This document shows positions 17,758-46,420 of a stretch of 64,000 bases of DNA, piece by piece; position 1 is the stretch's first letter; the number at the start of each line of letters is the position of its first letter. The position numbers and the translations under genes were made by a program. The notes beneath the pieces are model-generated. The model worked only from the letters and a program-made list of their open reading frames with translations, was not told where the DNA came from and made no database searches. Source of the stretch: Escherichia coli (GTDB lineage: Bacteria > Pseudomonadota > Gammaproteobacteria > Enterobacterales > Enterobacteriaceae); the NCBI RefSeq assembly GCF_003334305.1, contig NZ_QOWS01000021.1. The stretch is one strand, 5' to 3'.

Positions 17758-20700
17758 TCAACGAATACTGATGCCGGAAGCCGCTTTTTTGGTCACAATC
17801 ACCGTACAGTCGGTGATATTGCCTGCCCCCTGATTGCCTTTCTGGAAAATCTTAAACTCCAGAGTGACGCTACCACCACCACTAGGCATATCAATAACTG
17901 CACTGTAACTACCGGGAATGGCCCCTTTAGTTTCTCTGGATGCGATTAATACGCCGTTTTTGCGAACTTCAAAACCATAACCCGTGTATCGCGTGCCTCC
18001 TGGGTTATTTCCGCTCCCCGGATCGTCATACGCTATACCGTTAAAAATAATGGGCGGAATAATAATCTGGCGGTCAAAGTTATGATCATCGCTGATGGTG
18101 ACTGTAACCGTACCGTTTGGTGTTTCCGTGTTACCCCACGTACCGACTTTTTTCGGGAAGGCTTTTGATACAGCTTTAACGAAATCCCCTCTGACCTGGG
18201 TCGCCTCCAGCATGCCCTTAATCGTACAGTTTTCATTTACCGTGACATTGTTGAGCGTTCCTGAGTTCGCATTCACACTACCACTGATATCCGCATTTTT
18301 AGCGGTCAGCTTTCCGTCTGATGTCAGGGAAAATACCGGAGGACTGCCACCGCTGGTAATGGTGGGGGCTGTCAGGCGCTTCAGGAACACGTCGTTCATG
18401 AATATCTGGTTGCCCTGCGCCACAAACATCGGCGTTTCATTCCCGTTTGCCGGGTCAATAAACGCGATACGATTGGCGGCAACCAGAAACTGGCTCAGCT
18501 TGCCTTCCTCCGTGTCCTCCATGCTGAGGCCAATACCCGCGACATAATGTTTGCCGTCTTTGGTCTGCTCAATTTTGACGCCCCACATAGCATTCCATTT
18601 ATCGTTAGCGTCCTTCCACTCTTTCGAAAACTCATCCAGTCTGCTGGCGTTATCCTCCGTCAGGTCGACTTTTTCCAGCAGCTCTTTACCGAGATGGGAT
18701 TCGGTTATCTTGCCTTTGAAAAAATCCAGGTAACCTTCCGCATCATCGCTCGCCCGACCGACGGCCTCCACGAATGCCGATTTGCCAACGGTGTTCACAC
18801 TGCGGATATAAAAGTAATAATCATGGCCCGGTTTGATATTGATACTGGCGGCTATCCAGTACAGCCCCGTGCCAAGGTAGCGGGCTGTGGTTTCAACCTG
18901 CCTGATATCGGTAATCCGCGTTTCCGAGAACCAGAACTCAAACTGTACCGTCGGATCATAAACCGCAAGATGCGGCGTGGCGGTTATCTGAAAATAGCCC
19001 GGCGTCAGCTCAATCCGCGACGGCGCTGCCGGGGCGGCAATCCGGAACGATACCGACGCCGGATCGCCCTGCTGTCCCCGGGCATTTACCGCCCGGACCG
19101 TCAGCGTGTAACGCCCCAGCGCCAGTTGCCTGAAGCGGTAAGTGGTTTCCGTCGTCCGGGCCGTGCTGACCAGCCGCTCACTGCCGTCATCGGCGGCCAC
19201 GGTCAGGCGAAGCATAAAGCTCACGCCCTTCACCACCTTCGGCGTATCCCAGCGCGCCAGCACCTGGTATTCCCCGCTGTCTGCGGTGACTTCGGCGGTC
19301 AGGTGCTGCACCGCTGGCGGCGTGACACCATTCACCGTGCCGCTCTGGTCGCCGTCAAAGTGCGCCCCGTTATCCACGATGGCTTCTTTTTCCGGTACAT
19401 GCTGCACGGCGGTGATGGCATACGTGCCGTCGTCGTTCTCACGGATACTCACGCAGCGGAACAGGCGCTGGCGCAGCGTCGGCAGCTTCAGCCCCCACAC
19501 GCTGTATTCAGCAACGCCGTCAGGAACACGGCTCACTTTCACCTTCACGCCGTCGGTGACGGACTGAACCTCCACGCTGACCGGATTGCCACTTCCGTCA
19601 ACCAGGCTTATCAGCGTGGTACCGGAGGATGGCAGCGTGATTTCACGGTCGAGCGTCAGCGTCCGGGTCTGGCTGTTTACCGCCAGCACGCGACCACCGG
19701 TGCTGATACCGGCATAGTCATCATCGCAGATTTCAATGACATCGCCCGGTACATGGCGAAGCCCTTCAGCACCCACGCTGAAGTCCACGGTCTGCGTTTC
19801 CAGCAGTTCCGTTTTAATCAGCCACAGCCCGGCGCGGTGCGCCTGCCCCCGGCTGGTACAGCCAAAGGCATCCATCTTCGTGACGTTACGACCGTAACGG
19901 GCAATGGCCTGCGCATCTTCAACAAGCTCTGTCGCCGTCTCCCAGCCGTTATCCGGGTCAATCCAGTTCACCTCAACGGCATTATGGCGGTCCTTCAGGG
20001 CGCTGAAACTGTAGCGGAACGGCGCGCCATCATCCGGCATCACCACATTACTGCGGTTATAGGTCCACACCTTATCTGATGGTCGGTCCTGCACGAACGT
20101 CAGCGTCTGCCCGTTCCATACCGGCATACAGCGCATCGCCGAGCAGAAATCACTGAGCACATCCCACGCCTTACGCTGCGTGGTCAGGTAGGCATTACAG
20201 GTGATGCGCGGCTCCGTGCCGCCAAAACCGTCCGGCACTGACTGGTCGCAGTACTGGCCGATGACATACAGCGCCCATTTATCCACATCCGCCGCACCAA
20301 GACGTTTCCCCATGCCGTAGCGCGGATGGGTCAGCATATCCCACAGACACCAGGCCATGTTGTTGCTGTATGCCGGTTTAAACGTTCCGTCCCAGATACC
20401 GCTGTATTGCCGCGTCTGCGGGTTATAGTTCGACGGCACCTGCAGAATGCGCCCGCGCAGATGATAATTACGGCTCACCTGCTGGCTGCCGAACTGCTCC
20501 GAATCCACCTGCACGCCGACCAGTGCCGTGTTCGGGTAGCCCTGTTTCACATCGATGATTTCGGTGTATGACGACCAGAGCGTTTTGTTCTGCAGCTGGT
20601 CTGTGGTGCTGTCCGGCGTCATCCTGCGCATCCGGATATTAAACGGGCGCGGCGGCAGGCTACCCACCACCACCGAGGCCAGATACTGCGAGGTGGTTTT

Positions 20701-21171
20701 GCCCTTAATGGTGATGTCTTTTTCCGTCACCCAGCCACCGTTACGTTGTATCTGAACCAGCAGACGGACTTCCGACGGATTCCTGTCACCCTTTGAGGTG
20801 GTTTCCACCAGTGCCTGTACACCGAAGGTAAAGCGCAGACGGTCGATGTTTGCAGACGTAATGGTGCGGGTGATCGGCGTGTCATATTTCACTTCCGTAC
20901 CCAGCACCGTCTCGGAGCCGGAGGATTCAAACCCCTCCGGCGGTGTCTGCTCCTGCTCACCGGCACGGAACACCACCGTGACACCGGAGATGTTGGTATT
21001 CCCCTCAGTGTCCAGCACCGGCGTACTGTTCAGCAGCACGCTTTTTAATCCATCCACCGGACCTTCAACCGGCCCTTCGCTGATGGCATCGATCACACTC
21101 AGCAACTGCGTGGACTTCAGGTTGTCCTTCGCTTCGCGCGGGGTATGCCCCTTACTGCTTCCTTTACCCAT
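17758..21171 (-). CDS. J: Tail tip / host specificity protein J, 1137 aa
   Basis: Near-identical to lambda J over about the first 980 residues as recalled; the C-terminal ~150 aa diverge. Confidence 0.95.
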
Positions 21172-21231
21172 TCCTCACGCTCCATAAATGACAAAACCGC
21201 CCGCAGGCGGTTTCACATAAAACATTTTGCA

Positions 21232-21903
21232 TCAGCGACCAATCACCACAACCTGACCACCGTCCCCTTCGTCTGCCGTGCTGATCTCCTGAGAAACCAC
21301 GCGTGACCCCACGCGCATTTCCCCGTACAGAACAGGCAGAACATTGCCCTGGGCAACCATGTTATCCAGTGAGGAGAAATAGGTGTTCTGCTTACCGTTA
21401 TCCGTTGTCTGTGTACGGGGAGTTCTGGCTTTCGGTGCCAGCATCTGCGCCACACCACCGAGCACCATACTGGCACCGAGAGAAAACAGGATGCCGGTCA
21501 TACCACCGGCCCCAATGGCTGCCCCCCATGCTGCAAGGGTGGCTCCGGCGGTAAAGAATGATCCGGCAATGGCGGCAGCCCCCAGGACAATCTGGAATAC
21601 GCCACCTGACTTGGCCCCGGCGACTCTGGGAACAATATGAATCACAGCGCCATCAGGCAGAGTCTCATGTAACTGCGCCGTTAACCCGGACGTGCTGACG
21701 TCCCGCCCGGCAATCCGTACCTGATACCAGCCGTCGCTCAGTTTCTGACGAAACGCCGGGAGCTGTGTGGCCAGTGCCCGGATGGCTTCAGCCCCCGTTT
21801 TCACACGAAGGTCGATGCGGCGACCAAGTCGTTGTAAATCCCCGTAAAGGCAGATGCGCGCCATGCCCGGTGACGCCAGAGGGAGTGTGTGCGTCGCTGC
21901 CAT
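21232..21903 (-). CDS. I: Tail tip assembly protein I, 223 aa
   Basis: Matches lambda I as recalled (MAATHTLPLASPGMARICLYGDLQ…). Confidence 0.9.
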   Translation of the reverse strand: MAATHTLPLASPGMARICLYGDLQRLGRRIDLRVKTGAEAIRALATQLPAFRQKLSDGWYQVRIAGRDVSTSGLTAQLHETLPDGAVIHIVPRVAGAKSGGVFQIVLGAAAIAGSFFTAGATLAAWGAAIGAGGMTGILFSLGASMVLGGVAQMLAPKARTPRTQTTDNGKQNTYFSSLDNMVAQGNVLPVLYGEMRVGSRVVSQEISTADEGDGGQVVVIGR

Positions 21904-22544
21904 TTGTCGGTGTACCTCTCTCGTTTGCTCAGTTGTTCAGGAATATGGTGCAGCAGCTCGCCGTCGCCGCAGTAAATTGCGGCGTGATTCGGCACCGATG
22001 AACCAAAACAGCACAGCAGCACATCGCCCGGCTGTGCCGCTGACAACGGCACCTGATACAGCCCCGTCGCCTCCAGATTATCCAGATAGAGATTCTGGCC
22101 GTTACGCCACCAGTCATCCTCACGATGAAAGTCCGGCATCTCAATCCCCGCCAGATGATAAGCATCCCGGAACAGTGTGTAACAGTCCGTCACACCGTGC
22201 TCAAAGCGCCGCCCGGTGAGATGCGGCACACAGCGGAACTTATGAATCGTCCCCCGGCAGACCAGCCACCACGGCAAATCACTCTGCACCTGCAGCCGCC
22301 GGTCGGCCTCACTCAGCCAGGGCAGACCACCGGGGTGGCTGTGGACCAGCGCCACAATCTCACCCTGCATTTCTGCCTGCAGCCAGTCTTCCGGCGACAT
22401 ACGGAAATACGCCTCCGGCTCACCGGAGATATTCACGCAGGGGAAATATCTTTCCCCCTCCGGCGTGCTTACCACGAAGCCGCACGACTCCGCTGGCGCA
22501 CATCGCCGGGCGTGCGCCAGAATCGCTGATTCTGTCTGTGTCAT
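21801..22544 (-). CDS. K: Tail tip assembly protein K (JAB/MPN + NlpC/P60-like)
   Basis: Matches lambda K; the classical lambda annotation uses an internal start (about 22400, 199 aa); overlaps I by about 100 nt. Confidence 0.85.
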   Translation of the reverse strand: MTQTESAILAHARRCAPAESCGFVVSTPEGERYFPCVNISGEPEAYFRMSPEDWLQAEMQGEIVALVHSHPGGLPWLSEADRRLQVQSDLPWWLVCRGTIHKFRCVPHLTGRRFEHGVTDCYTLFRDAYHLAGIEMPDFHREDDWWRNGQNLYLDNLEATGLYQVPLSAAQPGDVLLCCFGSSVPNHAAIYCGDGELLHHIPEQLSKRERYTDKWQRRTHSLWRHRAWRASAFTGIYNDLVAASTFV

Positions 22545-22549
22545 GGGAT

Positions 22550-23248
22550 TTACTGCGAAAGTTTGTTAATGGAAAGGAAGCCGCCAAAGTTGCCGACGTT
22601 ATTGCGGAACTTACAACCGCTCAGGCATTTGCTGCATTTATCCTTCGTGATATCGGACGTTGGCTGGTCATATTCATCCGCGACAGCCGGACCGCTATAA
22701 CCGCACTCGTCACCGCGATAGGTCCAGGTGCAGGTGTTGGCCAGCATGATACGTCCCGGAAAAACAGCGCCATCCGTTTCCGTCGGCGTGGACAGTACAA
22801 AGGAGGCACTCACCGCGCTCAGTTCGCTGCACTGCTCAATGCGCCAGCGGCTGATCACCTCCTGCTCCGGATCGGCATAACTGTTTCCGTTGACGAAGTT
22901 CACCGCATCCAGAAAACGGGCGTAAACCTTACGCCGGACCACCGTTCCGCCGACCAGACTCTGCATATCTTCCGCCATCCCGGTGACCATACCGTACAGG
23001 TTAGAAACCGTCAGCGTGGGGCGCGTACTGGTGCCTTTGCCATTCAGTTCAAAACCGCTCCCCTGAATGGGATACGGCTGATACTGTCGCCCCTGCCAGG
23101 TGACCGGCTCACCTTTTTCGTTCTGCTCATTACAGAAAAAATAACGTTCTCCACCGACCTCTGTCAGGTCGATTTCCCAGAGCACCACGCTGGCCGACTG
23201 CTCCGCACGGGTGCATTCATTCAGTGTTTCCTGCCGGATATCCTGCAT
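22550..23248 (-). CDS. L: Minor tail protein L, 232 aa
   Basis: Matches lambda L as recalled. Confidence 0.9.
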   Translation of the reverse strand: MQDIRQETLNECTRAEQSASVVLWEIDLTEVGGERYFFCNEQNEKGEPVTWQGRQYQPYPIQGSGFELNGKGTSTRPTLTVSNLYGMVTGMAEDMQSLVGGTVVRRKVYARFLDAVNFVNGNSYADPEQEVISRWRIEQCSELSAVSASFVLSTPTETDGAVFPGRIMLANTCTWTYRGDECGYSGPAVADEYDQPTSDITKDKCSKCLSGCKFRNNVGNFGGFLSINKLSQ

Positions 23249-23577
23249 CAGTTCACCACCTGTTCAAACTCTGCGCTGAACTCAACACGCAGCATACTGA
23301 CCCGCGACGACCATTTTGCGCAGGTCACCTTTATCTGCCGCCACTCATAAGGCGGCGTCCACAGAAAGGATTTCCAGCCCCCGTGCTCTTCCAGAAACGA
23401 CTCCAGTACCGTGGCCTCCTCACGGGGGACAGAAAGCGTCACGCTGTACGTTTTCAGGTTGGCATTCAGCCCGGCAGGCGCTCGCTGAGAATAGCCATCA
23501 CCAAAGCGCACCTTTCTTACAGAAGGGACCGAAGCCACATCCATACCGGGTTTCACTTTCCAGCGGAAGGTCTTCAT
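23248..23577 (-). CDS. M: Minor tail protein M, 109 aa
   Basis: Matches lambda M; lambda gene order. Confidence 0.9.
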   Translation of the reverse strand: MKTFRWKVKPGMDVASVPSVRKVRFGDGYSQRAPAGLNANLKTYSVTLSVPREEATVLESFLEEHGGWKSFLWTPPYEWRQIKVTCAKWSSRVSMLRVEFSAEFEQVVN

Positions 23578-26135
23578 CGTCCACCTCCGGAGAACAGGCC
23601 ACCATCACGCATCTGTGTCTGAATTTCATCACGGGCACCCTTGCGGGCCATGTCATACACCGCCTTCAGAGCAGCCGGACCTATCTGCCCGTTCGTGCCG
23701 TCGTTGTTAATCACCACATGGTTATTCTGCTCAAACGTCCCGGACGCCTGCGACCGGCTGTCTGCCATGCTGCCCGGTGTACCGACATAACCGCCGGTGG
23801 CATAGCCGCGCATCAGCCGGTAAAGATTCCCCACGCCAATCCGGCTGGTTGCCTCCTTCGTGAAGACAAACTCACCACGGTGAACAATCCCCGCTGGCTC
23901 ATATTTGCCGCCGGTTCCCGTAAATCCTCCGGTTGCAAAATGGAATTTCGCCGCAGCGGCCTGAATGGCTGTACCGCCTGACGCGGATGCGCCGCCACCA
24001 ACAGCCCCGCCAATGGCGCTGCCGATACTCCCGACAATCCCCACCATTGCCTGCTTAAGCAGAATTTCTGTCATCATGGACAGCACGGAACGGGTGAAGC
24101 TGCGCCAGTTCTGCTCACTGCCGGTCAGCATCGCTGCCATATTCTGTGCAATACCATCAAAGGTCTGCGTGGCTGCACTTTTTACCTGCGACATACTGTC
24201 CGTGGCGCTCTCTTCCCACTCACTCCAGCCGGACTTCAGGCCTGCCATCCAGCTCCCGCGAAGCTGGTCTTCAGCCGCCCAGGTCTTTTTCTGCTCTGAC
24301 ATGACGTTATTCAGCGCCAGCGGATTATCGCCATACTGTTCCTTCAGGCGCTGTTCCGTGGCTTCCCGTTCTGCCTGCCGGTCAGTCAGCCCCCGGCTTT
24401 TCGCATCAATGGCGGCCCGTTTTGCCCGTTGCTGCTGTGCGAATTTATCCGCCTGCTGCGCCAGCGCGTTCAGGCGCTCCTGATACGTAACCTTGTCGCC
24501 AAGTGCAGCCAGCTGGCGTTTGTACTCCAGCGTCTCATCTTTATGCGCCAGCAGGGATTTCTCCTGTGCGGATAGCTGGCGACGTTGTGCCGCCTCCTCC
24601 AGTACCGCGAACTGACTTTCTGCCTTCCACAAATCCCGGCGCTGCTGGCTGATTTTCTCATTTGCTCCGGCATGCTTCTCCAGCGTCCGGAGTTCTGCCT
24701 GAAGCGTCAGCAGGGCAGCATGAGCACTGTCTTCCTGACGATCGCCCGCAGACACCTTCACGCCGGACTGTTTCGGCTTTTTCAGCGTCGCTTCATAATC
24801 CTTTTTCGCCGCCGCCATCAGCGTGTTGTAATCCGCCTGCAGGATTTTCCCGTCTTTCAGTGCCTTGTTCAGTTCTTCCTGACGGGCGGTATATTTCTCC
24901 AGCGGCGTCTGCAGCCGTTCGTAAGCCTTCTGCGCCTCTTCGGTATATTTCAGCCGTGACGCTTCGGTATCGCTCTGCTGCTGCGCATTTTTGTCCTGTT
25001 GAGTCTGCTGCTCAGCCTTCTTTCGGGCGGCTTCAAGCGCAAGACGGGCCTTTTCACGATCATCCCAGTAACGCGCCCGCGCTTCATCGTTAACAAAATA
25101 ATCATCCTTGCGCAGATTCCAGATGTCGTCTGCTTTCTTAAACGCAGCCTCTGCCTTAATCAGCATCTCCTGCGCGGTATCAGGACGACCAATATCCAGC
25201 ACCGCATCCCACATGGATTTGAAGGCCCGCGCAGTCCTGTCTGCCCAGGTCTCCAGCGTGCCCATGTTCTCTTTCAGGCGGCGGGTCTGGTCATCAAACC
25301 CTTTCGTTGCGGCCTCGTTCGCCGCCTGCAATGCCCCGGCTTCATCGCCGGAACGCTGCAACTGAGCAACATACGCAATCTGCTCCGCCGTCACGTTATG
25401 GAACTGGCGTGCCATCGCCGTCAGCCCCGACGTCGGGTCTGTGGTCAGCTTCCCGAAGGCTTCAGCGACCTTGTCCACCTCCACGCCGGATGCAGAGGAG
25501 AAACGCGCCACACTCTGGCTGATGGACGCAATCTGAGCCTCACCGCTTACCCCCGCCTTAACCAGTGCGCTGAGTGACTCGCTGGTCTGGTTAAACGTCA
25601 GCCCTGCCGCCTGCCCGGCTCTGGACAGGACCAGCATACGATCTGCCGTCAGCCCCGACTGATTGCCGGAAAGGACCAGCGTTTTGTTGAAATCGGACAA
25701 GGTTGAGTTGCCCTGATACCAGGCATACGCCAGCGCACCGGTCGCCACCGCCAGCGAGGTGGCCCCCACCATCGGCAGGGTGATCGCACCGGCAAGCCCC
25801 CTGAACATGGGGATCATCCCGCCGAAGGAGTCCTTAACCTGACCACCCTGTTGCAGCAGGATCAGCCACGGACTTTGCCCGCCTGCAAGCTGCGTGGCCA
25901 CGTCGGTGAACTGTGCAGGCAGCATACGCATGGCGGCTTTATACTGCCCGACGGAAATCCCCGCTTTCTGTGCAGCCAGCGCCTGTCGGCTCAGCGACTG
26001 TTCAACGACTGCCGCTGTTTTTTTCGCATCACTTTCCGTACCGGAAAAATGACGCCTGACTCTGGCCATCTGCTCGTCAAATCTGGCCGCATCCAGACTC
26101 AAATCAACGACCAGATCGCCTACCGGTTCAGCCAT
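23574..26135 (-). CDS. H: Tail tape measure protein H, 853 aa
   Basis: Same length and sequence as lambda H as recalled. Confidence 0.95.
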   Translation of the reverse strand: MAEPVGDLVVDLSLDAARFDEQMARVRRHFSGTESDAKKTAAVVEQSLSRQALAAQKAGISVGQYKAAMRMLPAQFTDVATQLAGGQSPWLILLQQGGQVKDSFGGMIPMFRGLAGAITLPMVGATSLAVATGALAYAWYQGNSTLSDFNKTLVLSGNQSGLTADRMLVLSRAGQAAGLTFNQTSESLSALVKAGVSGEAQIASISQSVARFSSASGVEVDKVAEAFGKLTTDPTSGLTAMARQFHNVTAEQIAYVAQLQRSGDEAGALQAANEAATKGFDDQTRRLKENMGTLETWADRTARAFKSMWDAVLDIGRPDTAQEMLIKAEAAFKKADDIWNLRKDDYFVNDEARARYWDDREKARLALEAARKKAEQQTQQDKNAQQQSDTEASRLKYTEEAQKAYERLQTPLEKYTARQEELNKALKDGKILQADYNTLMAAAKKDYEATLKKPKQSGVKVSAGDRQEDSAHAALLTLQAELRTLEKHAGANEKISQQRRDLWKAESQFAVLEEAAQRRQLSAQEKSLLAHKDETLEYKRQLAALGDKVTYQERLNALAQQADKFAQQQRAKRAAIDAKSRGLTDRQAEREATEQRLKEQYGDNPLALNNVMSEQKKTWAAEDQLRGSWMAGLKSGWSEWEESATDSMSQVKSAATQTFDGIAQNMAAMLTGSEQNWRSFTRSVLSMMTEILLKQAMVGIVGSIGSAIGGAVGGGASASGGTAIQAAAAKFHFATGGFTGTGGKYEPAGIVHRGEFVFTKEATSRIGVGNLYRLMRGYATGGYVGTPGSMADSRSQASGTFEQNNHVVINNDGTNGQIGPAALKAVYDMARKGARDEIQTQMRDGGLFSGGGR

Positions 26136-26562
26136 ACCGGACTCCTCCTGCGATCCCTTCTGATACTGTCATCAGCATTACGTCATCCTCCGTCATGTCC
26201 GCCACATCCGGGGAAGTAGGGATAACTTCATTCCCGTCCGGGCCAAAGCGGACACCTCCGGCAAGCCCTGCCGCTTTCTGCATCAGCACATCATCTTCAG
26301 GCTCTTCGTCAGCCTCGCGCCGGTTCAGCAGACTGAAATCCAGCGGATGCATATCCGGATCGCTGAAAAACAGGCTGAGCACGGTGTACGTCAGCCCGGA
26401 AAAGTGCATATCCAGCAGAACATCATGAAAATAATGGGTACTGTAAAAGCGGTGCCAGTCGGCATACTCCGTGGATGACATCCCGGCAAGCATGGCACGC
26501 CAGTCGGGTCGCCCCATCTCACGCGCCAGTTTCAGGGCAAAACTCAGCTCACCGTCGAACAC
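26128..26562 (-). CDS. T: Tail assembly chaperone T segment (expressed as the G-T frameshift fusion)
   Basis: 144-aa ORF overlapping the 3' end of G in the -1 frame. Confidence 0.85.
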   Translation of the reverse strand: MFDGELSFALKLAREMGRPDWRAMLAGMSSTEYADWHRFYSTHYFHDVLLDMHFSGLTYTVLSLFFSDPDMHPLDFSLLNRREADEEPEDDVLMQKAAGLAGGVRFGPDGNEVIPTSPDVADMTEDDVMLMTVSEGIAGGVRYG

Positions 26563-26966
26563 TTTCCCGCAGAAACAGGCTCTGCGGGCCCGGCGACCTC
26601 TGTCTGTTCAGGGGCATTATTCACAACAAACTCATACATACCAGACAGCCGGTACACCACGTTTTCAGCATGAGAAATTGCCTCCGTGGGCCAGGTGGTA
26701 AGCACTTCCTGCTCAATCTGTTTAACGGCTTCATTCATGGACGGCATCTGCGTCTTCTGCGGATGGTTATGCCACAGGGACATCGCCACCAGAAACGCGC
26801 CGGTTCTGATGGCGTCTTCCACAGTAAACTTCCGGTTGCTGTCTGACTCCGCCTGTTCTGCCTGCCGTTTCATCAGGGCGAGATGCTCAATACGCTGCAG
26901 GGCTGACAGTTCAGAAAGCGTGACGGTCACGCCGTTATGTTCAAATGATTCGGTTTTCAGGAACAT
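26544..26966 (-). CDS. G: Tail assembly chaperone G, 140 aa
   Basis: Matches lambda G; lambda gene order V-G-T-H. Confidence 0.9.
   Translation of the reverse strand: MFLKTESFEHNGVTVTLSELSALQRIEHLALMKRQAEQAESDSNRKFTVEDAIRTGAFLVAMSLWHNHPQKTQMPSMNEAVKQIEQEVLTTWPTEAISHAENVVYRLSGMYEFVVNNAPEQTEVAGPAEPVSAGKCSTVS
26563..26569 (-). other. Programmed -1 ribosomal frameshift slippery site GGGAAAG (G to G-T)
   Basis: The heptamer is present on the coding strand exactly in the G/T overlap; coordinates approximate. Confidence 0.7.
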
Positions 26967-26981
26967 CGCTGACTCTCCGGA

Positions 26982-27722
26982 TTAACTGTCGGTGACAGTG
27001 ATTTCTGCAACCGCAGCAAGTTCACCATTACCGGATACAACCGGAATGTTGACCTTACCTGCAGCAACGCCTTTCACGGTGATGGTCATACCACTGACCG
27101 ACACGGTGGCTTTTGTTTTATCCGCTGACACCGCACGGAAGCTCTTGTCAGTTGCGCCCTCCGGCTGGAATGCTGCGGTCAGCGTGGTGCTCTGCCCTTT
27201 CACCACCGAGGAGCTGGCAGGCGTCACAGTCATACCGGTTGCCGCCGTCACCGTACTGCGATCTTCTGCCATTGACGGACGGCCCACATTGGTGACCTTC
27301 ACCGTACGGGTGATCACTTCCTTCGCCGTCACCGCCTTACCGATACTGCTGACCCAGCCACGGAACACATCGACCGTGCCGTTCGGGAAGCGGATTTTAT
27401 AGGCACGGGTATCACCTTCATTAAACCACGCCAGCAGCGCCTGCTGCCCCTGCTCTCCGGGCATCCACGCCAGCGTGAAGCTGGTATCTCCGGCGGATTT
27501 CTGCCCCTGCCCGGTCGCGGTCCAGTCCGCATCTTCATCATCGAGATAACTGTCGTCATAGGACTCAGCGGTCAGTTCGCCGGGCGTCAGGTCTTTAACT
27601 TTAGCCAGACGCGACCAGTCAACGTCTGAAAGCGGGTTCGCATAAGGGTCGCCGCTCCCGTTATAAACCCACAGGGTGGTTCCGGCACCTTTCACCGGTA
27701 TTGCTGGATTTGGTACAGGCAT
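26982..27722 (-). CDS. V: Major tail tube protein V, 246 aa
   Basis: ORF 26982-27752; internal Met gives the lambda V N-terminus MPVPNP…. Confidence 0.9.
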
Positions 27723-27729
27723 ATCGTCC

Positions 27730-28125
27730 TCACATTTCATAGGTAATGACATAAGTCAGATCGGCAGAACTCCACAGGCCCGCATCATCGTCGCGCCGGT
27801 AGTCATAGCCACTGGCCACCATACTGGTGATCAAATCTGACAGTGCCGGGATATCGCTCATCACCGGATAAATCCGGGACTCCATCCACGCATCCAGCTC
27901 TGAATCCGGCACCTGAGCAGGCAGGAAAACTTCGATATGCAGTTCCGCCTGCCAGGTATCGCTGTCCAGCTCTTCGCCCGTGTATTCAGCGCCGGTGAGA
28001 TAAACGGCAACTGCCGGAAAATCCGCCTCATCAAAAACAGCGGGGCGACCATCAAAAAACGTCGCCCCGGTGTCATGCTTCTCCAGTGCATCCAGTACGG
28101 CTGCACGGAGTTCAGTATGTTTCAT
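27730..28125 (-). CDS. U: Tail terminator protein U, 131 aa
   Basis: Matches lambda U. Confidence 0.9.
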
Positions 28126-28700
28126 CGCTTTATTACCATCCTCAGTTGATGCTGCAGCGCATAGCCCAGCTCTTTCGGAAGACGCTCACGCCGTATCCGC
28201 TCAATATTCTGTTTAAACGCCGTGGTCAGCGGCACCGCCATCGGGATTTTCACCACATCAATGGGGTAACGGTTTTTCCCGGCCACACGCTGCATGACAT
28301 GCCAGCGGCCATTTTTCAGTTGCTGAATAAACGCGCCGGGAATACGACGGTTTCCCACCACAAGCACGCTGCCGCCACCTTTCAGGGCTGAACGCTGCCC
28401 CTTTTTACGACGCCTGCGTCGGGACAGGACAATCCGCGCGTTACCCAGCTTTATTACGGGCAAATCCCCCCGGTTAACCTTGATTCTGGCCTGCGGATTT
28501 TTGACCGTGGCCCTTTTCAGCCTGGCCCTTTCCTTTACCAGTTTCCGGCGTACCTTTGTCTCACGGGCAACCTGTGACGCCGACTGCGATATCGCGGATG
28601 AAGCAACGCGGTTAATGGCCATTGCGGCGGCACCAGGCACCGCCGTTTTGCTGATACGGCTGAGGTTTTCAATGGCCTGCTCAAGACCTTTTATGGCCAT
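28122..28700 (-). CDS. Z: Tail completion protein Z, 192 aa
   Basis: Matches lambda Z. Confidence 0.9.
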   Translation of the reverse strand: MAIKGLEQAIENLSRISKTAVPGAAAMAINRVASSAISQSASQVARETKVRRKLVKERARLKRATVKNPQARIKVNRGDLPVIKLGNARIVLSRRRRRKKGQRSALKGGGSVLVVGNRRIPGAFIQQLKNGRWHVMQRVAGKNRYPIDVVKIPMAVPLTTAFKQNIERIRRERLPKELGYALQHQLRMVIKR

Positions 28701-28711
28701 ACATCCCCCTT

Positions 28712-29065
28712 TCAGCGGCGACGGTTAACGGCAGGCGGTACGCCCCGCCCAAGCCAGAGATGACAGCTTCCACCATCATCCGGCGAAACCCGGTCTATCC
28801 AGAAGTTTTCCTCACCGATGGTCAGCGTGTCTCCACGCCGCAGCTGCCGCACATCATCAGTCCGGACAAACAGGGACGGGCTGGAGCCTTCAACGCGCAC
28901 GCCCTGTCCGGCATAGCTGATATTTTCAGGGTCATCAAAAACACCACGTATTACTGCGCCGGACTGCTCACCGGATGTCATGGTGGCTGACGTTCCCATG
29001 TACCCGCGTATCGTTTCATCGGCGCGGACAATGGCAGCATCGAACAGGTTATCGAAATCAGCCAC
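28712..29065 (-). CDS. FII: Head-tail joining protein FII, 117 aa
   Basis: Matches lambda FII. Confidence 0.9.
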   Translation of the reverse strand: MADFDNLFDAAIVRADETIRGYMGTSATMTSGEQSGAVIRGVFDDPENISYAGQGVRVEGSSPSLFVRTDDVRQLRRGDTLTIGEENFWIDRVSPDDGGSCHLWLGRGVPPAVNRRR

Positions 29066-29076
29066 AGCGCCTCCCG

Positions 29077-29472
29077 TTATTGCATTCTGGCCAGGCCGCG
29101 CTCTGTCATTTCGGCTGCCACACCGGCAGAGACACGGAACGCCGTTCCCGGCAGCACAAATGCCACAGCCTCATCCCGCGTGGCGTGAAGTGCATCAGTA
29201 TGCAGCGTCACCAGTGCCACAACCGTGACCAGATCAGCCGTATCAGTCACGGTATCCGGCTGCGCTGATACAACCTCATTTTCATGTCCGGTCAGCGCAT
29301 TTTCCGGGCTGACAGATGTGTCCTGACCAGCAGCGTCATCCGTGTCATCAAGCTCCTCTTCCAGCTCTGCCACACGGAGTGCCAGTTCTTCTTTCGTCCC
29401 CGTCAGGCTGACATCACGGTTCAGTTGCTCACCCAGCACCTGAAGACGGGCAATCAGTTCATCTTTCGTCAT
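29077..29472 (-). CDS. FI: DNA packaging protein FI
   Basis: ORF 29077-29511; internal Met gives the lambda FI N-terminus MTKDELIARL. Confidence 0.85.
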   Translation of the reverse strand: MTKDELIARLQVLGEQLNRDVSLTGTKEELALRVAELEEELDDTDDAAGQDTSVSPENALTGHENEVVSAQPDTVTDTADLVTVVALVTLHTDALHATRDEAVAFVLPGTAFRVSAGVAAEMTERGLARMQ

Positions 29473-29513
29473 GGACTCCTCCACAGAGAGAAAATGGCCC
29501 CGAAGGGCCATGA

Positions 29514-30539
29514 TTACGCCAGTTGTACGGACACGAACGCATCAGGGTCAGCCAGCAGCATCAGCGGTGCTGACTGAATCATGGTGAACTCACGCGCCGG
29601 ATCGCCGGTGGTCACCCAGTTTTTCGGGTAGCGGGCAGAGGCGTTAATACCTTCGCGCTGTGCGTCCGCATCCTGAATGCAGCCATAGGTGCGCAGACCG
29701 CGTGCCTGAGTGTTCCCCAGCACCATCGTGTTGTCCGGCAGGAAGTTCTTTTTGACGTCGTTTTCCACGTACTGTCCGGAATACACGACGATCGCCGTAT
29801 CGCCATACATCCCCTTATAGGACACCGCTTCGCCCAGGTCTTTTACCGCTGTCTCCAGCTCGGAATTAGAGCCGCGACGGGTATCCAGCTTCTCCTTGAC
29901 GGCTTTGAAGGAACGGAACAGCGCCCAGCCTTTCGGATCAAACACGATGATATTCACCACACCGCTGGCGTTCAGCGCGTAGGCTTCGATATCGTCGGTC
30001 GGGTCATACGTGGACTTGTCACGCTTGCTCCACTCCGTACCGCCGGACTGCGTGATGTTGTTCGCCACACTGCGGCCCATATCCACTTCAACCGGATCGA
30101 AGGCTTCACCGGTCATGGTATATTTGCCCTTAAGCACGGCAGAAACGGCCTGCATCTCTTCGACCTGAGCAATGGCCAGCTCTTCGTCTCGCATGTTCTG
30201 CAGGATGATGCGACGGCGGCGGTAAGCCGGGTCCGCCAGATTCTGTGGATCTTCATCCGGCAGGCGACGCAGGGTCATCTGCGGATTCACCTCATGCTTC
30301 GGCTTGACATATCCCGGTGTAAATTCAGAGGTGGAGCCGCCACGGGAGCGGATAACCTCACCGGAAACAATCGGCGAAACGTACAGCGCCATGTTTACCA
30401 GTCCCGGAATTTGTGAGAGATAGACTTTCTCCGTGGTGAAGGGATAGCTCTCACGGAAAAAGAGACGCAGAAACAGCGGATCAAACTTAAATTTCTTCTC
30501 ATTTGCCGCCAGCAGCTGGGCGGTTGTGTACATCGACAT
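29514..30539 (-). CDS. E: Major capsid protein E, 341 aa
   Basis: Internal Met gives the lambda E N-terminus MSMYTTAQLLAANE. Confidence 0.95.
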   Translation of the reverse strand: MSMYTTAQLLAANEKKFKFDPLFLRLFFRESYPFTTEKVYLSQIPGLVNMALYVSPIVSGEVIRSRGGSTSEFTPGYVKPKHEVNPQMTLRRLPDEDPQNLADPAYRRRRIILQNMRDEELAIAQVEEMQAVSAVLKGKYTMTGEAFDPVEVDMGRSVANNITQSGGTEWSKRDKSTYDPTDDIEAYALNASGVVNIIVFDPKGWALFRSFKAVKEKLDTRRGSNSELETAVKDLGEAVSYKGMYGDTAIVVYSGQYVENDVKKNFLPDNTMVLGNTQARGLRTYGCIQDADAQREGINASARYPKNWVTTGDPAREFTMIQSAPLMLLADPDAFVSVQLA

Positions 30540-30594
30540 AAAAAAATCCCGTAAAAAAAGCCGCACAGGCGGCCTTTAGTGATGAAGGGTAAGG

Positions 30595-30927
30595 TTAAAC
30601 GATGCTGATTGCCGTTCCGGCAAACGCGGTCCGTTTTTTCGTCTCGTCGCTGGCAGCCTCCGGCCAGAGCACATCCTCATAACGGAACGTGCCGGACTTG
30701 TAGAACGTCAGCGTGGTGCTGGTCTGGTCAGCAGCAACCGCCAGAATGCCAACGGCAGCACCGTCGGTGGTGCCATCCCACACAACCAGCTTACGGGTGG
30801 AGGTGTCCAGCATCAGCGGGGTCATTGTAGGCGCTTTCGCACTCAATCCGCCGGGCGCGGTTGCCGTATGTGCCGGGTCACTGTTGCCCAGCGGCTGGTA
30901 ATGGGTAAAGGTTTCTTTGCTCGTCAT
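30595..30927 (-). CDS. D: Head decoration protein D, 110 aa
   Basis: Matches lambda D ([12 protein letters not shown]…). Confidence 0.95.
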
Positions 30928-30936
30928 AAACATCCC

Positions 30937-32236
30937 TTACACTGGTGTGTTCAGCAAATCGTTAACGGCATCAGATGCCGGGTTACCTGCAGCCAGCGGT
31001 GCCGGTGCCCCCTGCATCAGACGATCCAGCGCAGTGTCACTGCGCGCCTGTGCACTCTGTGGTGCAGCTGCCAGAATGCGGCGGGCCGTTTCCACGGTCA
31101 TACCGGGGGTTTCGGCCAGCACGCGTGCCTGTTCTTCGCGTCCGTGAGCCTCCTCACAGTTGAGGATCCCCATAATGCGACTGTTTTCTGCCGCAACCGC
31201 TGCGGTGATCTGCGCGTTCACGTCCGGCTGCGCCGCGCTGGCGTTCTCGCCCTCCGTCGCTTGCACCACGCCAGTAACGTCAGCCTGCGAAGCAGTGGCT
31301 GAAACAGTTGTTGATTGAGTCTCTTTGGTCATTCGCCCTCCTGAGAGACGGGATTTACGTGCATCCAGTGCATCACGCATGACGGTGATCGCATCGGTAC
31401 TGTTAACAAGTTCATCAGCCAGTCCGGCATCAATGGCCTCCTGACCGCTGTACACTGCAGCCTCGGTATCCAGCACAGCCTGCACGGACAGGCCGGTATA
31501 TGCCGACACCTTCTGTGCAAACATCCGGCGGGTTGCATCCATCCGGGACTGCAATGTTTCCCGGACATCATCCGGTAGATGGCTGTAGGGGTTGCCATCC
31601 ACCTTATGGCTACCGCTGTAAATCAGCGTGATTTCCACGCCCTGTTTCTCCAGCGCAGCGCCGTAATTACTGTGAGCCATCATGACGCCGATGGAGCCTG
31701 TCCGGGCGGTCTGCGTGACCAGACGCCGGGAGGAGGCACTGGCAAGCAACTGACCTGCGCTGCAGTTCATGTCATTGGCCAGCGCCCATACCGGCTTTAT
31801 GTCACGCACACGGGCGATGATGTCAGCGCAGTCAAATGCCCCTGCCACCATCCCGCCTGGCGTATCCATATCGAGCAGAATGCCGTCCACCATCGGGTCG
31901 CTGGCAGCCTGTTGCAGACGGGCGATAATGCCGTTGTAACCGGTCATCCCCGAATACGGCTGCAGCGCCCGCGTCCGGCTGACCAGCGTGCCGGACACCG
32001 GCAGCACGGCGATGCCGTTCATGACCTGATAACTGCGGGCCTGTCGTGGTCCGTCATCATCAACGGATAACGCCAGCGCCGCGGGTGCCTCTCCGGCAGT
32101 CAGGCTGTCGCCGGATACCGCATCCGTCAGGCGGCTGATCCCAAGCTGGCCTGCAAGCGCACAAAAGAAAACCCGCGCATAGGCGGGTTCAAGCATCAGC
32201 GGCTCATTAAAGGCCATACTGGCAATATGCGGGAGA

Positions 32237-32256
<20 letters not shown>
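30937..32256 (-). CDS. C: Capsid assembly protease C (Nu3 scaffold nested in frame), probable GTG start
   Basis: ORF 30937-32391; the lambda C N-terminus (TAELRNLPH) begins at a Val codon about 32256, overlapping the end of B. Confidence 0.85.
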
Positions 32257-35937
<3,681 letters not shown>

Positions 35938-35963
<26 letters not shown>

Positions 35964-36483
35964 TCAGCAACCCCGGTATCAGTTCATCCAGCGCGGCTGC
36001 TTTGTTCATGGCTTTGATGATATCCCGTTTCAGGAAATCAACATGTCGGTTTTCCAGTTCCGGAAAACGCCGCTGCACCGACAGGGGGATCCCGTCGAGA
36101 ATACTGGCAATTTCACCTGCGATCCGCGACAGCACGAAAGTACAGAATGCGGTTTCCACCACTTCAGCGGAGTCTCTGGCATTTTTCAGCTCCTGTGCGT
36201 CGGCCTGCGCACGCGTAAGTCGATGGCGTTCGTACTCAATAGTCCCTGGCTGGAGATCTGTCTCGCTGGCCTGCCGCAGTTCTTCAACTTCCCGGCGCAG
36301 CTTTTCGTTCTCAATTTCAGCATCCCTTTCGGCATACCATTTTATGACGGCGGCAGAATCATAAAGCACCTCATTACCCTTGCCACCGCCTCGCAGAACG
36401 GGCATTCCCTGCTCCTGCCAGTTCTGAATGGTACGGATACTCGCACCGAAAATATCAGCCAGCTGCTTTTTGTTGACTTCCAT
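35938..36483 (-). CDS. nu1: Terminase small subunit Nu1, 181 aa
   Basis: Matches lambda Nu1 (MEVNKKQLADIFGASIRTIQNWQEQGMP…). Confidence 0.95.
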
Positions 36484-36660
36484 TGTTCATTCCACGGACA
36501 AAAACAGAGAAAGGAAACGACAGAGGCCAAAAAGCTCGCTTTCAGCACCTGTCGTTTCCTTTCTTTTCAGAGGGTATTTTAAATAAAAACATTAAGTTAT
36601 GACGAAGAAGAACGGAAACGCCTTAAACCGGAAAATTTTCATAAATAGCGAAAACCCGCG

Positions 36661-36672
36661 AGGTCGCCGCCC
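36661..36672. other. cos cohesive-end site (cosN core)
   Basis: aggtcgccgccc is the reverse complement of the lambda left cohesive end GGGCGGCGACCT, upstream of nu1; coordinates approximate. Confidence 0.8.
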
Positions 36673-37427: not shown

Positions 37428-37721
37428 ATGAAAAAAATGTTGTTTTCTGCCGCTCTGGCAATGCTTATTACAGGATGTGCTCAACAGACGTTTACTGTTG
37501 GAAACAAACCGACAGCAGTAACACCAAAGGAAACCATCACCCATCATTTCTTCGTTTCGGGAATTGGACAGGAGAAAACTGTTGATGCAGCCAAAATTTG
37601 TGGCGGCGCAGAAAATGTTGTTAAAACAGAAACCCAGCAAACATTCGTAAATGGATTTCTCGGTTTTATTACTTTAGGCATTTATACTCCGCTGGAAGCG
37701 CGTGTGTATTGCTCACAATAA
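37428..37721 (+). CDS. bor: Bor lipoprotein (serum-resistance-associated), 97 aa
   Basis: MKKMLFSAALAMLITGCAQQ lipobox; matches lambda Bor; opposite orientation to the lysis genes. Confidence 0.85.
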   Translation: MKKMLFSAALAMLITGCAQQTFTVGNKPTAVTPKETITHHFFVSGIGQEKTVDAAKICGGAENVVKTETQQTFVNGFLGFITLGIYTPLEARVYCSQ

Positions 37722-37752: not shown

Positions 37753-38214
37753 CTATCTGCACTGCTCATTAATATACTTCTGGGTTCCTTCCAGTTGTTT
37801 TTGCATAGTGATCAGCCTCTCTCTGAGGGTGAAATAATCCCGTTCAGCGGTGTCTGCCAGTCGGGGGGAGGCTGCATTATCCACGCCGGAGGCGGTGGTG
37901 GCTTCACGCACTGACTGACAGACTGCTTTGATGTGCAACCGACGACGACCAGCGGCAACATCATCACGCAGAGCATCATTTTCAGCTTTCGCATCAGCTA
38001 ACTCCTTCGTGTATTTTGCATCGAGCGCAGCAACATCACGCTGACGCATCTGCATGCCAGTAATTGCCGCGTTCGCCAGCTTCAGTTCTCTGGCATTTTT
38101 GTCGCGCTGGGCTTTGTAGGTAATGGCGTTATCACGGTAATGATTAACAGCCAATGACAGGCAGACGATGATGCAGATAACCAGAGCGGAGATAATCGCG
38201 GTTACTCTGCTCAT
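37753..38214 (-). CDS. Rz: Spanin inner-membrane subunit Rz, 153 aa
   Basis: Matches lambda/DLP12 Rz; follows the endolysin gene. Confidence 0.85.
37812..37994 (-). CDS. Rz1: Spanin outer-membrane lipoprotein Rz1, embedded in Rz in the +1 frame
   Basis: 60-aa ORF with a lipobox (VVGC) and proline-rich sequence, fully nested within Rz. Confidence 0.75.
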
Positions 38215-38708
38215 TGTTTCCCCCACAAACAGACTTCACGCTCAATCTCACGGCGAGTCATCAGTCCTTTCCATTGATTACCGCCAGCGTATGTCCAGCG
38301 CTGTAGCTGATCACATGCGCCTTTAATATCACCCTGGTTTATTTTGCGAAGAAGCGTCGATGTTCTGAAATTGCCAGCACCCACGTTGTAGACGAACGAG
38401 TAAAGAGCGCCGCGCGTTGTTTCCGGTATATCGACTTTGATGTACCGGTTAATTTGTCTGGCGACAGTTGCAAGGTCTTTATTCAGGAGGGCTTTGCACT
38501 CTGCTTCGGTATACGTTTTACCGGGAATGATGTCTTTTCCTGTATGCCCGTAACATACAGTCCATACACCAACTATGTCTTTGTAAGGATTATGTCTCAC
38601 ACCTTCCAGACCATCGTTACCACTTGGGCCAGTGATTAACACAGATGCTATAGCAATAGCCCCGCCACCAATAGCAGCAGCAACAGCTTTTCGTAATGAT
38701 GGAGGCAT
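38211..38708 (-). CDS. rrrD: SAR endolysin (phage-21-type lysozyme, RrrD-like), 165 aa
   Basis: N-terminal signal-anchor-release segment ([16 protein letters not shown]) plus T4-lysozyme-like domain; matches DLP12 RrrD as recalled. Confidence 0.85.
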
Positions 38709-38923
38709 TATTCACCTCTCGCAGCCTTGCGCTTATCTTCTTTAATCTTGAAATAAAGGTTTGTCAGGTACGTCAGCAGGCCAAATACCAGGCTACCCAG
38801 CACACCTATTGCTGCCCACTGTGAGGGCGTGACTTTATCGAGCAGCTGTAAAAACCAGTACCCGGCACTACCTGCTGAGGTGCCATAGGCGACACCCGTT
38901 GTTAACTTATCCATGGATTTCAT
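38708..38923 (-). CDS. essD: Pinholin S (phage-21-type, EssD-like), 71 aa
   Basis: Two TM segments and a charged C-terminus; immediately upstream of the SAR endolysin. Confidence 0.85.
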
Positions 38924-39032: not shown

Positions 39033-39068
39033 CTCAAAAAATGGAAAAACCCGCTCGACGGCGGGTTT
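39033..39068 (-). terminator. Intrinsic terminator hairpin upstream of S
   Basis: On the minus strand: aaacccgccgtcgagcgggttt followed by a T-tract; coordinates approximate. Confidence 0.5.
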
Positions 39069-41236: not shown

Positions 41237-41377
41237 TCATACTCCTGCTCCTGTCAGTGTTTTGGCGTAATTCTTCAGTATTCGGTAATCGGTCAAAACA
41301 GAACCGGGGAAACGATATAAGCGCAGGCGCACCCAGCGGCGGCGAAGACGCTCTGCCATATAAGACTCAAACATCAT
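41237..41377 (-). CDS. ylcG: Small protein YlcG-like, 46 aa
   Basis: Manually translated ([46 protein letters not shown]); ATGA overlap with the rusA stop; coordinates approximate. Confidence 0.55.
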
Positions 41378-41736
41378 TCATCTCCCAGTTCGGTGATGGT
41401 CAGTTCCAGCCTCCCACCTTTGGTAACAGGCATCTTCACAACGCGGTAATCAACGACCTGAGCATCATCCAGCCAGAAACCTGCTTTGGTGAGTGCGTCA
41501 AAAGCGGCTTTTTGCAGATTATCCAGGTCACGGCGACGGCGATCCGGCATGTGGCACTCAATACGGATTTTCACTGGCATAGCCAGGCCGATATCCAGCA
41601 TTGCGTTTTTAATGATTCGGGTGACGTTATCGCGGTATGCCTGCCCTTCTGCGCTGATGTGTGTGCGCCCGCGATTATGGCGGTAATAGCGGTTATTGCT
41701 CGGAGGCCAGGGTAATGTGATGCTGTAGGTATTCAC
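41374..41736 (-). CDS. rusA: Holliday junction resolvase RusA, 120 aa
   Basis: Matches RusA as recalled. Confidence 0.9.
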
Positions 41737-42023
41737 GCCTTAATAACCCCCTCTTTCAGCCAGATAACCTGCGTTCTCGCCATACCTTCCAGCGCGCATT
41801 CTTTTGCATACTCAGCATCGACAAAATATGTGCGGCGGTCGATTTCGTCGTGACAGGCAGAACATGCAATGGTGGCAATCAGGTCTGGCGGTTTGATACC
41901 GGTACCGCACAATCCAGCCAGCCGGATATGTGCCAGTACTGACGTTTCAGGATTGCCATTACATACGCCAGGGATTCTTACCTGGCATTCCCGACCACGC
42001 GCTGCTTTTCTCAAATCAGCCAT
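41733..42023 (-). CDS. ybcO: YbcO-like putative nuclease, 96 aa
   Basis: Internal Met gives [16 protein letters not shown]… with Cys-rich motifs; DLP12 gene order. Confidence 0.75.
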
Positions 42024-42186
42024 GATTCCTCCTTGCTGCCAGTCGCAACCATTTTTTATCAACCAGGCTAGCGGTATATCCGAGCAGTGTTGGTATTTCG
42101 GATGGCTTCAGCTCAGGCTTACGCTTACGACGATTTGATACTCTGTAGATGTGCCCGTTCATGACACGAATAAGCGGTGTAGCCAT
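42016..42186 (-). CDS. ninE: NinE-like protein, 56 aa
   Basis: Manually translated ([56 protein letters not shown]); start overlaps the ybcN stop; coordinates approximate. Confidence 0.55.
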   Translation of the reverse strand: MATPLIRVMNGHIYRVSNRRKRKPELKPSEIPTLLGYTASLVDKKWLRLAARRNHG

Positions 42187-42641
42187 TACGCCTCCTGCTT
42201 ATCGCGCAGCTGCTGGTATTCACAGCTCTGCGGAATTGTCAGGTGGCAGCCGATATTCATCGCCCAGGCTTCGACTTTGCACAGGAAGATGTACATCTCG
42301 CCGGTTTCCAGCTCTGACGTATGGCGGAGGGATTGGACGGTGGTGACCTCGCCGGACACGACATCTACACGGTCTTTGCTTTCGTAGCCGAGATAGGTGT
42401 GCTTCATCGCGTCTTTGACCCACTCAGGCGTAGCGAAGGTCTTGCCGCGGGCGATGAGATATTCGCTGATCTCCGTGTACCACATGTGGCTGAGCGCGTT
42501 CTGCGACAGGCTGCGCTTCTCGCGCCACGGCTTAACCTGCAGGCGTAAGCATTGCCCGGCATCCAGCAATGGCTGAATCTGCTGGCCGATGGCCGCGAAG
42601 TTACCGCGATGGAGTTTGATGCCGTCTACTGGCAGAGTCAT
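42186..42641 (-). CDS. ybcN: YbcN-like nin-region protein, 151 aa
   Basis: Same size and position as DLP12 ybcN; function not assigned from sequence. Confidence 0.6.
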   Translation of the reverse strand: MTLPVDGIKLHRGNFAAIGQQIQPLLDAGQCLRLQVKPWREKRSLSQNALSHMWYTEISEYLIARGKTFATPEWVKDAMKHTYLGYESKDRVDVVSGEVTTVQSLRHTSELETGEMYIFLCKVEAWAMNIGCHLTIPQSCEYQQLRDKQEA

Positions 42642-42905
42642 ACGGCCTCCCTAACGGAAACCGCAGAATGCAGAAAATCGCAGGTGCATTTCTGCATCTG
42701 TGACAAGGTGATGAGTTCAGATTGTGGTCGCATTTAAGTCCCCTTAAATGCGCAGAAGTCACCGGAGTTGTTCAGGCTCCGATGAGAGGATTATGGCGGA
42801 TTGATTACGATAAATCAAAACTATCTTGAAGCCAAAACAGTGATCTTCGCTTTAAAAACCTTGTATACTTTCACCTAATCACAGCCAGAACTATGGATCT
42901 AACCA

Positions 42906-43283
42906 ATGACCAACAAAGAAAACAAAGATAAATATATTAACAAGTTCAAGAAAGAGCTTTCAAAATATATACAACCAACTGCTGGAGTGGACATTCAATT
43001 ATTTAACTCTAAGGATGGTGGTGGTGTAATTAAAGCCACTTTGAATAGAAGTGGAAAAAGAAAATCATCTATTGCAGGTAATTTTACTAAATTAGGTGAG
43101 GCAATTACCTCGAGTGGGCAGAGGGTTTTTGGTGGTGATCTATCAAATGTAAATTTTTACGGAACAAATACGATTTTTGATGGAGATACAATATTTTTAA
43201 TTAAATCACCTGATTCAGAGGAGTGGTCATCACAAAAAGCTTCCAAAGACGTAGAGGGCATCGTATTTGGAGGGAAAAAATGA
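42906..43283 (+). CDS. Hypothetical small soluble protein, 125 aa (first gene of an AT-rich reverse-oriented cargo pair)
   Basis: ORF on the strand opposite to the flanking early genes; Lys/Gly-rich; no recognisable motif. Confidence 0.5.
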   Translation: MTNKENKDKYINKFKKELSKYIQPTAGVDIQLFNSKDGGGVIKATLNRSGKRKSSIAGNFTKLGEAITSSGQRVFGGDLSNVNFYGTNTIFDGDTIFLIKSPDSEEWSSQKASKDVEGIVFGGKK

Positions 43284-43708
43284 TTAACATTACTACTAAG
43301 GATGGCACTCAAGTCAGTGGTGAAGTAAGAGATCTAGTAATTCTTCTTGAAACTGATGGAAAAACGGTGTCTGATTATTTGCAGCCAATCCCTCCCAAAA
43401 AAGATACACACTGGAGCATGATTTTCATTCCGGTAGCAATTTATATACTACTTAATCTTGTATACATTATTGCTCACCCATTATTTCCTGAAAAATATCT
43501 AAAAACATCAACATCTATATTTCTATTCATTTCCTTCATATTAAGTGCAATAGTAGCATATTTTGTTTTCCATAAGCATAAATCTGCCACTCTATCCATA
43601 TGCAGCTTAGTGTTCTTAGTGTTAATTGTAGGTGCTAACGTAGGGTTTATCAGTTACAGCGACCTAACACAAAAAGCGACGCAAAAATTAGATAGTTTGT
43701 CTAAATAA
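43280..43708 (+). CDS. Hypothetical membrane protein with about 3 TM helices, 142 aa
   Basis: ATG preceded by GGAGGG; ATGA overlap with the upstream gene; three hydrophobic stretches of about 20 aa. Confidence 0.5.
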   Translation: MINITTKDGTQVSGEVRDLVILLETDGKTVSDYLQPIPPKKDTHWSMIFIPVAIYILLNLVYIIAHPLFPEKYLKTSTSIFLFISFILSAIVAYFVFHKHKSATLSICSLVFLVLIVGANVGFISYSDLTQKATQKLDSLSK

Positions 43709-46380: not shown

Positions 46381-46420
46381 TGTTTTGACCATCAATACGC
46401 AAGCGTATAAATTAAAACTT

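Follow-up and report, generated by a model that had tools for sequence, protein, structure and literature searches.

The pinholin and SAR-endolysin pathway is the textbook alternative to the S/R lysis genes of phage λ, whose R protein is a transglycosylase. The experimental prototype of a pinholin with a SAR endolysin is phage 21, with S21 (S68/S71), R21 and Rz21/Rz1-21, and the curated annotation of phages 21 and 434B lists these genes as antiholin, pinholin, SAR endolysin, i-spanin and o-spanin. Heptameric pinholes of ~2 nm and triggering by depolarisation are established for S21 only (PMC6116005, PMC9636201), and S21 is unable to release λ R (PMC6116005). λ S, of 107/105 aa, belongs to the class I holins (PMC9636201), and λ R is a soluble cytoplasmic endolysin that gains access to the wall only through the holes made by the holin (PMC6116005). 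A lysis module is also present in DLP12 (qsr'), the cryptic prophage of Escherichia coli K-12, where the order is quuD-nmpC-essD-rrrD-rzpD/rzoD-borD. The cloned DLP12 cassette is lytic (PMC7918800).

The lysis genes described here are found in a 64,000-nt stretch of E. coli DNA, hereafter the window. They are read, with a probability of roughly 0.93, as the late-gene cassette of a complete λ-like prophage at argU that uses the phage 21 pinholin/SAR-endolysin pathway. The joining of lysis genes of the phage 21/DLP12 type to λ head and tail genes is ordinary: both the system and its arrangement have been described before.

Organization of the lysis cassette

All of the lysis genes are on the minus strand (Table 1). 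Along the late strand the order is Q, an antisense porin gene, S, R and Rz/Rz1, with overlapping stop and start codons. An earlier note on this DNA had placed a phage-21-type lysis cassette at 38708-38923. These positions do define a real ORF, on the minus strand, which that note left unstated, but they span the holin gene alone, and the whole cassette is larger, at about 37753-38923.

Table 1. Positions of the lysis genes, neighboring features and segments of λ homology in the window
Feature	Position	Strand	Basis
Q, late-gene antiterminator, quuD type, 127 aa	40768..41151	minus	126/127 identical to K-12 QuuD; PHROG 79
Intact OmpC/NmpC-type porin gene, 360 aa	39497..40579	plus, antisense between Q and S	NF007841
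Terminator-like hairpin and U-run	39047..39068	minus (late strand), 124 nt upstream of S	consensus scan
S gene	38708..38923	minus	ORF of 71 codons; PF04971; homology to S21, EssD and 434B S
R gene, SAR endolysin, GH24-type true lysozyme, 165 aa	38211..38708	minus	structure, Pfam, R21 homology
SAR segment, R codons 1-26	38631..38708	minus	residues 1-37 identical to R21; hydropathy of residues 8-26
Rz, inner-membrane spanin subunit, 153 aa	37753..38214	minus	identity to λ and phage 21; PHROG 13
Rz1, outer-membrane lipoprotein spanin subunit, 60 aa	37812..37994	minus	nested in Rz; lipobox
bor/iss-type lipoprotein gene	37428..37721	plus, convergent with lysis genes	PHROG 260, E 1e-58; lipobox ITGC
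λ-type cos, terminase, head and tail genes (Nu1 through most of J)	18202..36672	minus	λ DNA identity
λ 1-18474 (cos, Nu1 to J)	36672→18202		97.8%, 18,475 nt
λ right end	37083→36673		96.1%
λ Rz, Rz1, bor	38214→37374		94.8%
Part of λ O/P	44963→44172		93.6%
λ exo, bet, gam region	52346→49570		96.9%

The holin gene S

The translated aa sequence of S matches the Pfam family PF04971 ('Bacteriophage P21 holin S') at residues 5-67 with E 2.2e-35, and PHROG holin families are matched as well. An alignment with S21, taken from the curated phage 21 genome OL657228, extends across all 71 residues with 86% identity, and 10 of the 71 residues differ. Identity is 100% to EssD of K-12 DLP12 and also to S of phage 434B, which is annotated there as antiholin / class II holin. 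The label "phage-21-type" is thus right as to the family, but the subtype is that of DLP12/434. A cutoff as loose as E<=100 still yields no alignment between S and λ S. None of S, Rz, Rz1, Bor and Q was assigned to an NCBIfam family, and PADLOC gave no match for S or R.

The alignment with S21 shows that the dual start Met1-Lys2-Ser3-Met4 is kept. This MKSM start is accompanied by the Shine-Dalgarno sequence GAGGTGGGG, and the identical S gene of 434B is annotated with two ribosome-binding sites. By analogy with phage 21, translation from Met1 is taken to give the antiholin of 71 aa (S71 equivalent), and translation from Met4 (38914..38708) the pinholin of 68 aa.

A Kyte-Doolittle scan displays two hydrophobic segments. 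The first, at about residues 8-27, is weakly hydrophobic (mean 0.38-0.68) with 53-60% G+A+S+T, and the second, at residues 36-54, is strongly so (mean 1.72). The C-terminal tail is charged and basic, and is conserved in S21. The description of S in the earlier note as a 71-aa pinholin-like protein with two transmembrane segments is therefore borne out by family, alignment and hydropathy.

Canonical holins can occur in phages with exported endolysins (PMC6116005), and S might accordingly be thought to make large holes instead of pinholes, as P1 LydA does alongside its SAR endolysin. This is most improbable given the close match to S21, which includes equal length and the same two-segment hydropathy profile. 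Moreover G40, G43, S44 and G48 of the second transmembrane segment are invariant between S and S21, and S21 does not itself release λ R. The pinholin reading of S is thus retained.

The endolysin gene R

The start codon of R overlaps the stop codon of S as TAATG. R is 92% identical to R21, and 93% identical both to RrrD and to the 434 protein. Searches against solved structures returned 4zpu (RrrD) at E 1.4e-103, 3hde (R21) at E 1e-102 and 3hdf at E 2e-86. The 3hde entry represents full-length R21 of 165 aa, and 3hdf is a 140-aa chain that matches residues 27-165; the solved structures of these close relatives represent the tethered and the released form.

R residues 1-37, with the SAR segment included, are identical to those of R21. 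Residues 8-26 have a mean hydropathy of 2.11, and 12 of these 19 residues (63%) are Gly, Ala, Ser or Thr. The PF00959 lysozyme domain follows the hydrophobic N-terminus and covers residues 34-156. A pattern search located the E-X8-D-X5-T triad at E35/D44/T50, and all three positions are invariant in the alignment with R21. Published criteria are available for both the SAR domain and the triad (PMC9239132), and on its sequence the N-terminal segment of R fits the published signal-anchor-release description (PMC9239132).

A reading of the cassette as a λ-type system, with a canonical holin of the S105/S107 kind and a cytoplasmic transglycosylase like λ R, would be in keeping with the context, as λ-type virion genes and λ-identical Rz/Rz1 are found on both sides. 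The lysis genes themselves do not agree with it. R shows no significant similarity to λ R (best E 0.75), and S, as noted above, has no alignment to λ S. The hydrophobic N-terminus of R has no counterpart in λ R, in which no hydrophobic window is found (maximum 0.04), and λ R matches no Pfam family, whereas R matches PF00959. A λ-type cassette is thus vanishingly improbable, and it was rejected on the alignments of S and R with their λ namesakes and on hydropathy. The checks proposed in the earlier note, alignment of the pair to S21/R21 and to λ S/R and a membrane prediction for the endolysin N-terminus, have consequently come out in favor of what it had stated: a pair that differs from that of λ, and an endolysin with an N-terminal SAR segment. 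The opposing case that it raised, a cytoplasmic endolysin like λ R, is excluded.

Between R and its relatives R21 and RrrD, 11-13 residues are different (11 in the comparison with RrrD), and the nearest phage allele is 97.6% identical. There is no reason to see more than allelic variation in these differences. Some of the substitutions relative to RrrD are clustered at residues 38-40, in the interval that separates catalytic residues E35 and D44, and this cluster might tune activation.

The spanin genes and bor

The ATG of Rz overlaps the R stop codon as ATGA. Rz shares 99% of its residues with λ Rz and 96% with phage 21 Rz, and it has an N-terminal transmembrane segment at residues 4-22 with a mean hydropathy of 2.87. 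Rz1 shares 98% of its residues with its λ counterpart and all of them with that of phage 21, and displays the lipobox VVGC with Cys20. The Rz1 start is 220 nt past that of Rz, which places it in the +1 frame and wholly inside Rz, as the earlier note had observed. With the transmembrane segment, the lipobox Cys and the +1-frame nesting all present, Rz/Rz1 is a two-component spanin of the embedded λ architecture. The convergent bor/iss-type gene that follows is annotated iss in E. coli strain A7.

Strain A7, which is from orangutan faeces, has a sequence that is 99.995% identical to the window. In its RefSeq record Rz and Rz1 are annotated as frameshifted pseudogenes, and a run of seven C residues (C7) that breaks both genes is present there in place of C6 in the window. 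The run in the window, at 37863-37868 in the minus-strand reading, is C6 as in phage 434B, and both ORFs are intact and full-length, with 96-100% identity to those of λ, phage 21 and K-12. It is therefore very unlikely that Rz and Rz1 are pseudogenes here. The annotation in A7 is due to a single extra C that is not in the window and is likely a homopolymer assembly error, a common kind. A true C7 in this strain would abolish the spanin step. Rz and Rz1 are taken below as intact genes.

The region upstream of S

The porin gene between Q and S scores 515 bits against NCBIfam NF007841, for which the cutoff is 484. It corresponds to nmpC of DLP12, which is disrupted by IS5 in K-12 and in phage 434B. 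As the porin gene lies antisense inside the late operon, late transcription must cross it in antisense.

The terminator-like hairpin upstream of S folds as RNA at -12.2 kcal/mol (z = -1.97). Its putative role would be to prevent expression of S-R-Rz when there is no antitermination by Q. A sigma-70 consensus scan did not locate the late promoter and revealed no promoter-like site downstream of Q; promoter-like sites were fewer than in shuffled sequences. An Rfam gathering search gave nothing in or near the cassette, and its only matches elsewhere in the window are tRNA-Arg and IS009. The IS009 match (226.7 bits, 13654-13852, minus strand) is in the region of the tail-fibre-assembly gene, at the distal end of the prophage.

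Proposed course of lysis

The steps that follow are drawn from work on phage 21 and λ (reviews PMC6116005, PMC9636201). Q-dependent late transcripts would cross the antisense porin gene and the terminator-like hairpin at 39068-39047. After late transcription, S68 and S71 would build up together in the inner membrane. R would be exported by Sec and kept tethered and inactive by its N-terminal segment. Triggering would come at a fixed moment, when the first transmembrane segment of S would exit the bilayer; the extra Lys2 of S71 would slow this exit, so that S71 would act as antiholin. The second segment would then form heptameric pinholes of ~2 nm, with collapse of the proton-motive force. R, freed from the membrane, would refold and cut the peptidoglycan. 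Lastly, Rz-Rz1 complexes would fuse the inner and outer membranes and disrupt the outer membrane.

Homology to λ and phage 21

The claim that the head and tail genes are λ-like holds at 97.8% nt identity over 18,475 nt, and the λ cohesive-end sequence GGGCGGCGACCT begins at position 36672. Head genes compared with those of phage 21 show only 66-69% identity; thus the virion module is that of λ and not that of phage 21. In the comparison of the window with λ, no homology was found downstream of P across nin, Q (quuD type), the porin gene, S and R. The module swap proposed in the earlier note is thus real, but the non-λ block exceeds the S/R pair and takes in nin, Q and the antisense porin gene also.

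The limits of the homologous segments are found at gene boundaries: the match to phage 21 opens 1 nt ahead of the S ATG, and that to λ picks up again exactly at the Rz ATG. The cassette is therefore a clean example of recombination junctions at gene boundaries, on the S ATG side and at the Rz ATG. The replacement of S and R beside λ-type virion genes is real yet routine, and is not unusual.

The prophage at argU

A 47-bp direct repeat is present at 7527-7573, between envY and ompT, and at 54071-54117, where it forms the 3′ part of the tRNA-Arg(UCU) gene argU. The two copies bound a 46.6-kb element at argU, the site occupied by DLP12 in K-12. In the comparison with K-12, the K-12 sequence jumps from window position 35656 to 14049, and K-12 lacks the roughly 21.6 kb that hold the head and tail genes. 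The element at argU corresponds to the cryptic prophage DLP12 of K-12 in its undeleted state.

The prophage is apparently complete, with terminase, head, tail, replication and recombination genes and cos. We tentatively consider it a complete and possibly inducible phage with a λ virion at argU, that is, an undeleted DLP12 with porin gene, lysis cassette and head/tail genes all intact, and would put this at somewhat less than even odds. If true, the "domesticated" lysis module of DLP12 would be open to study in a native, functional phage context. The element shows DLP12 as it was before decay.

The identity of S to EssD and the position of the prophage at the DLP12 site also bring to mind a cassette that mainly serves the host, in cell-wall turnover, vesicle production or biofilm, and is not a working phage lysis system. 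Host phenotypes of the DLP12 module have been reported (PMC7918800). With an apparently complete 46.6-kb prophage around the cassette, phage lysis is the simplest role and a mainly host-directed one is unlikely; the two roles are compatible with each other. The genes are accordingly treated here as a phage lysis system.

Several other genes of the window are set down here as observations. In the plus-strand region 46385-48891, the cI-like XRE repressor gene is directly followed by genes for a metallopeptidase of the ImmA/IrrE family (47243-48382) and for a DUF4411 protein (48379-48891), and this pair occupies the position of rexA/rexB in λ. The metallopeptidase has weak PADLOC matches only (capP, 1e-14; RmrA, 6e-8) and the DUF4411 protein has none. 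The pair may be a prophage exclusion or defence pair. Two small genes of 125 and 142 aa at 42906-43708 (plus strand), antisense between P and ybcN and with no PADLOC match, look like accessory insertions (morons). Cargo genes are present at 9136-10620 and 11166-11834 (both plus strand), between the tail-fibre genes and ompT, and include an alpha/beta hydrolase (494 aa) and a SAM-dependent methyltransferase by the A7 annotation. K-12 appY had no match in the comparison of the window with K-12.

Distribution of the cassette

DNA of the cassette matches 564 phage records, 35 of which cover at least 80% of the cassette, and an S that is at least 99% identical is encoded in 41 phage records. A 5.4-kb query that runs from rusA to the cos-proximal nohD end, and takes in Q, the porin gene, S, R, Rz and bor, was used to scan complete E. 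coli genomes, and at least 80% of this stretch is held by 1896 of 5426. At least 13 named phages are among the best matches both to the λ-type head genes, at 97.9-100% nt identity, and to the S-R-Rz-bor block, at 93-97%. The λ-like phages with the cassette include PhiR30_1, Lambda_2E9, Lambda_4B5, Lambda_2G7a, Lambda_ev087, PhiR29_1/2, Turner, ev243, PhiR34_1, PhiR68_2, PhiR26_1, PhiR11_1 and 434B. The combination of a λ virion with a pinholin and SAR endolysin is thus already known, from DLP12, from phage 434 and from many sequenced λ-like phages. The practical value of the present case is mainly in correct annotation, as a routine case of lambdoid mosaicism.

The 434B genome (OL657227) has at 41277-44868 a stretch, ylcG'-quuD-nmpC::IS5, that is annotated as a "region of 434 nonhomology", with the crossover in ylcG. 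Because the IS5 insertion is that of K-12 DLP12, this suggests that the laboratory stock of 434B acquired the quuD-nmpC::IS5 stretch from its K-12 host. The perfect match of S to that of 434B had been considered as a sign of a natural 434 lineage; this was dropped, the quuD-nmpC::IS5 stretch being annotated as non-434 as far as the S start.

Comparison with known systems

Phage 434B is similar to the window over 20 kb of virion genes (97.1%) and from the porin gene through cos (95.0%). The λ-like phages listed above differ from the present prophage in their integration, immunity and accessory genes.

λ has S-R-Rz-Rz1 in the same place of the late operon, just upstream of cos, and its Rz/Rz1/bor DNA is 94.8% identical. 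However λ S and λ R are without significant similarity to S and R of the window, and λ S, as stated at the outset, belongs to another class of holin.

Phage 21 shares the four lysis genes, their lengths, their overlaps and the dual start (S 86%, R 92%, Rz 96%, Rz1 100%), and its DNA is 93.8% identical over the interval that opens 1 nt before the S ATG and ends with bor. The difference is upstream of S, where phage 21 has another Q, its late promoter and two tRNA genes, whereas the porin gene is found here.

DLP12 is alike in its argU site, its att repeat and its gene order, with the antisense porin gene included. Identity is complete over the 90 nt that precede S, and the gene products agree closely (S 100%, Q 126/127, R 154/165, Rz 146/153, Rz1 59/60). 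The K-12 copy is defective, with nmpC::IS5 and with its virion genes gone, whereas the porin and virion genes of the present prophage are intact.
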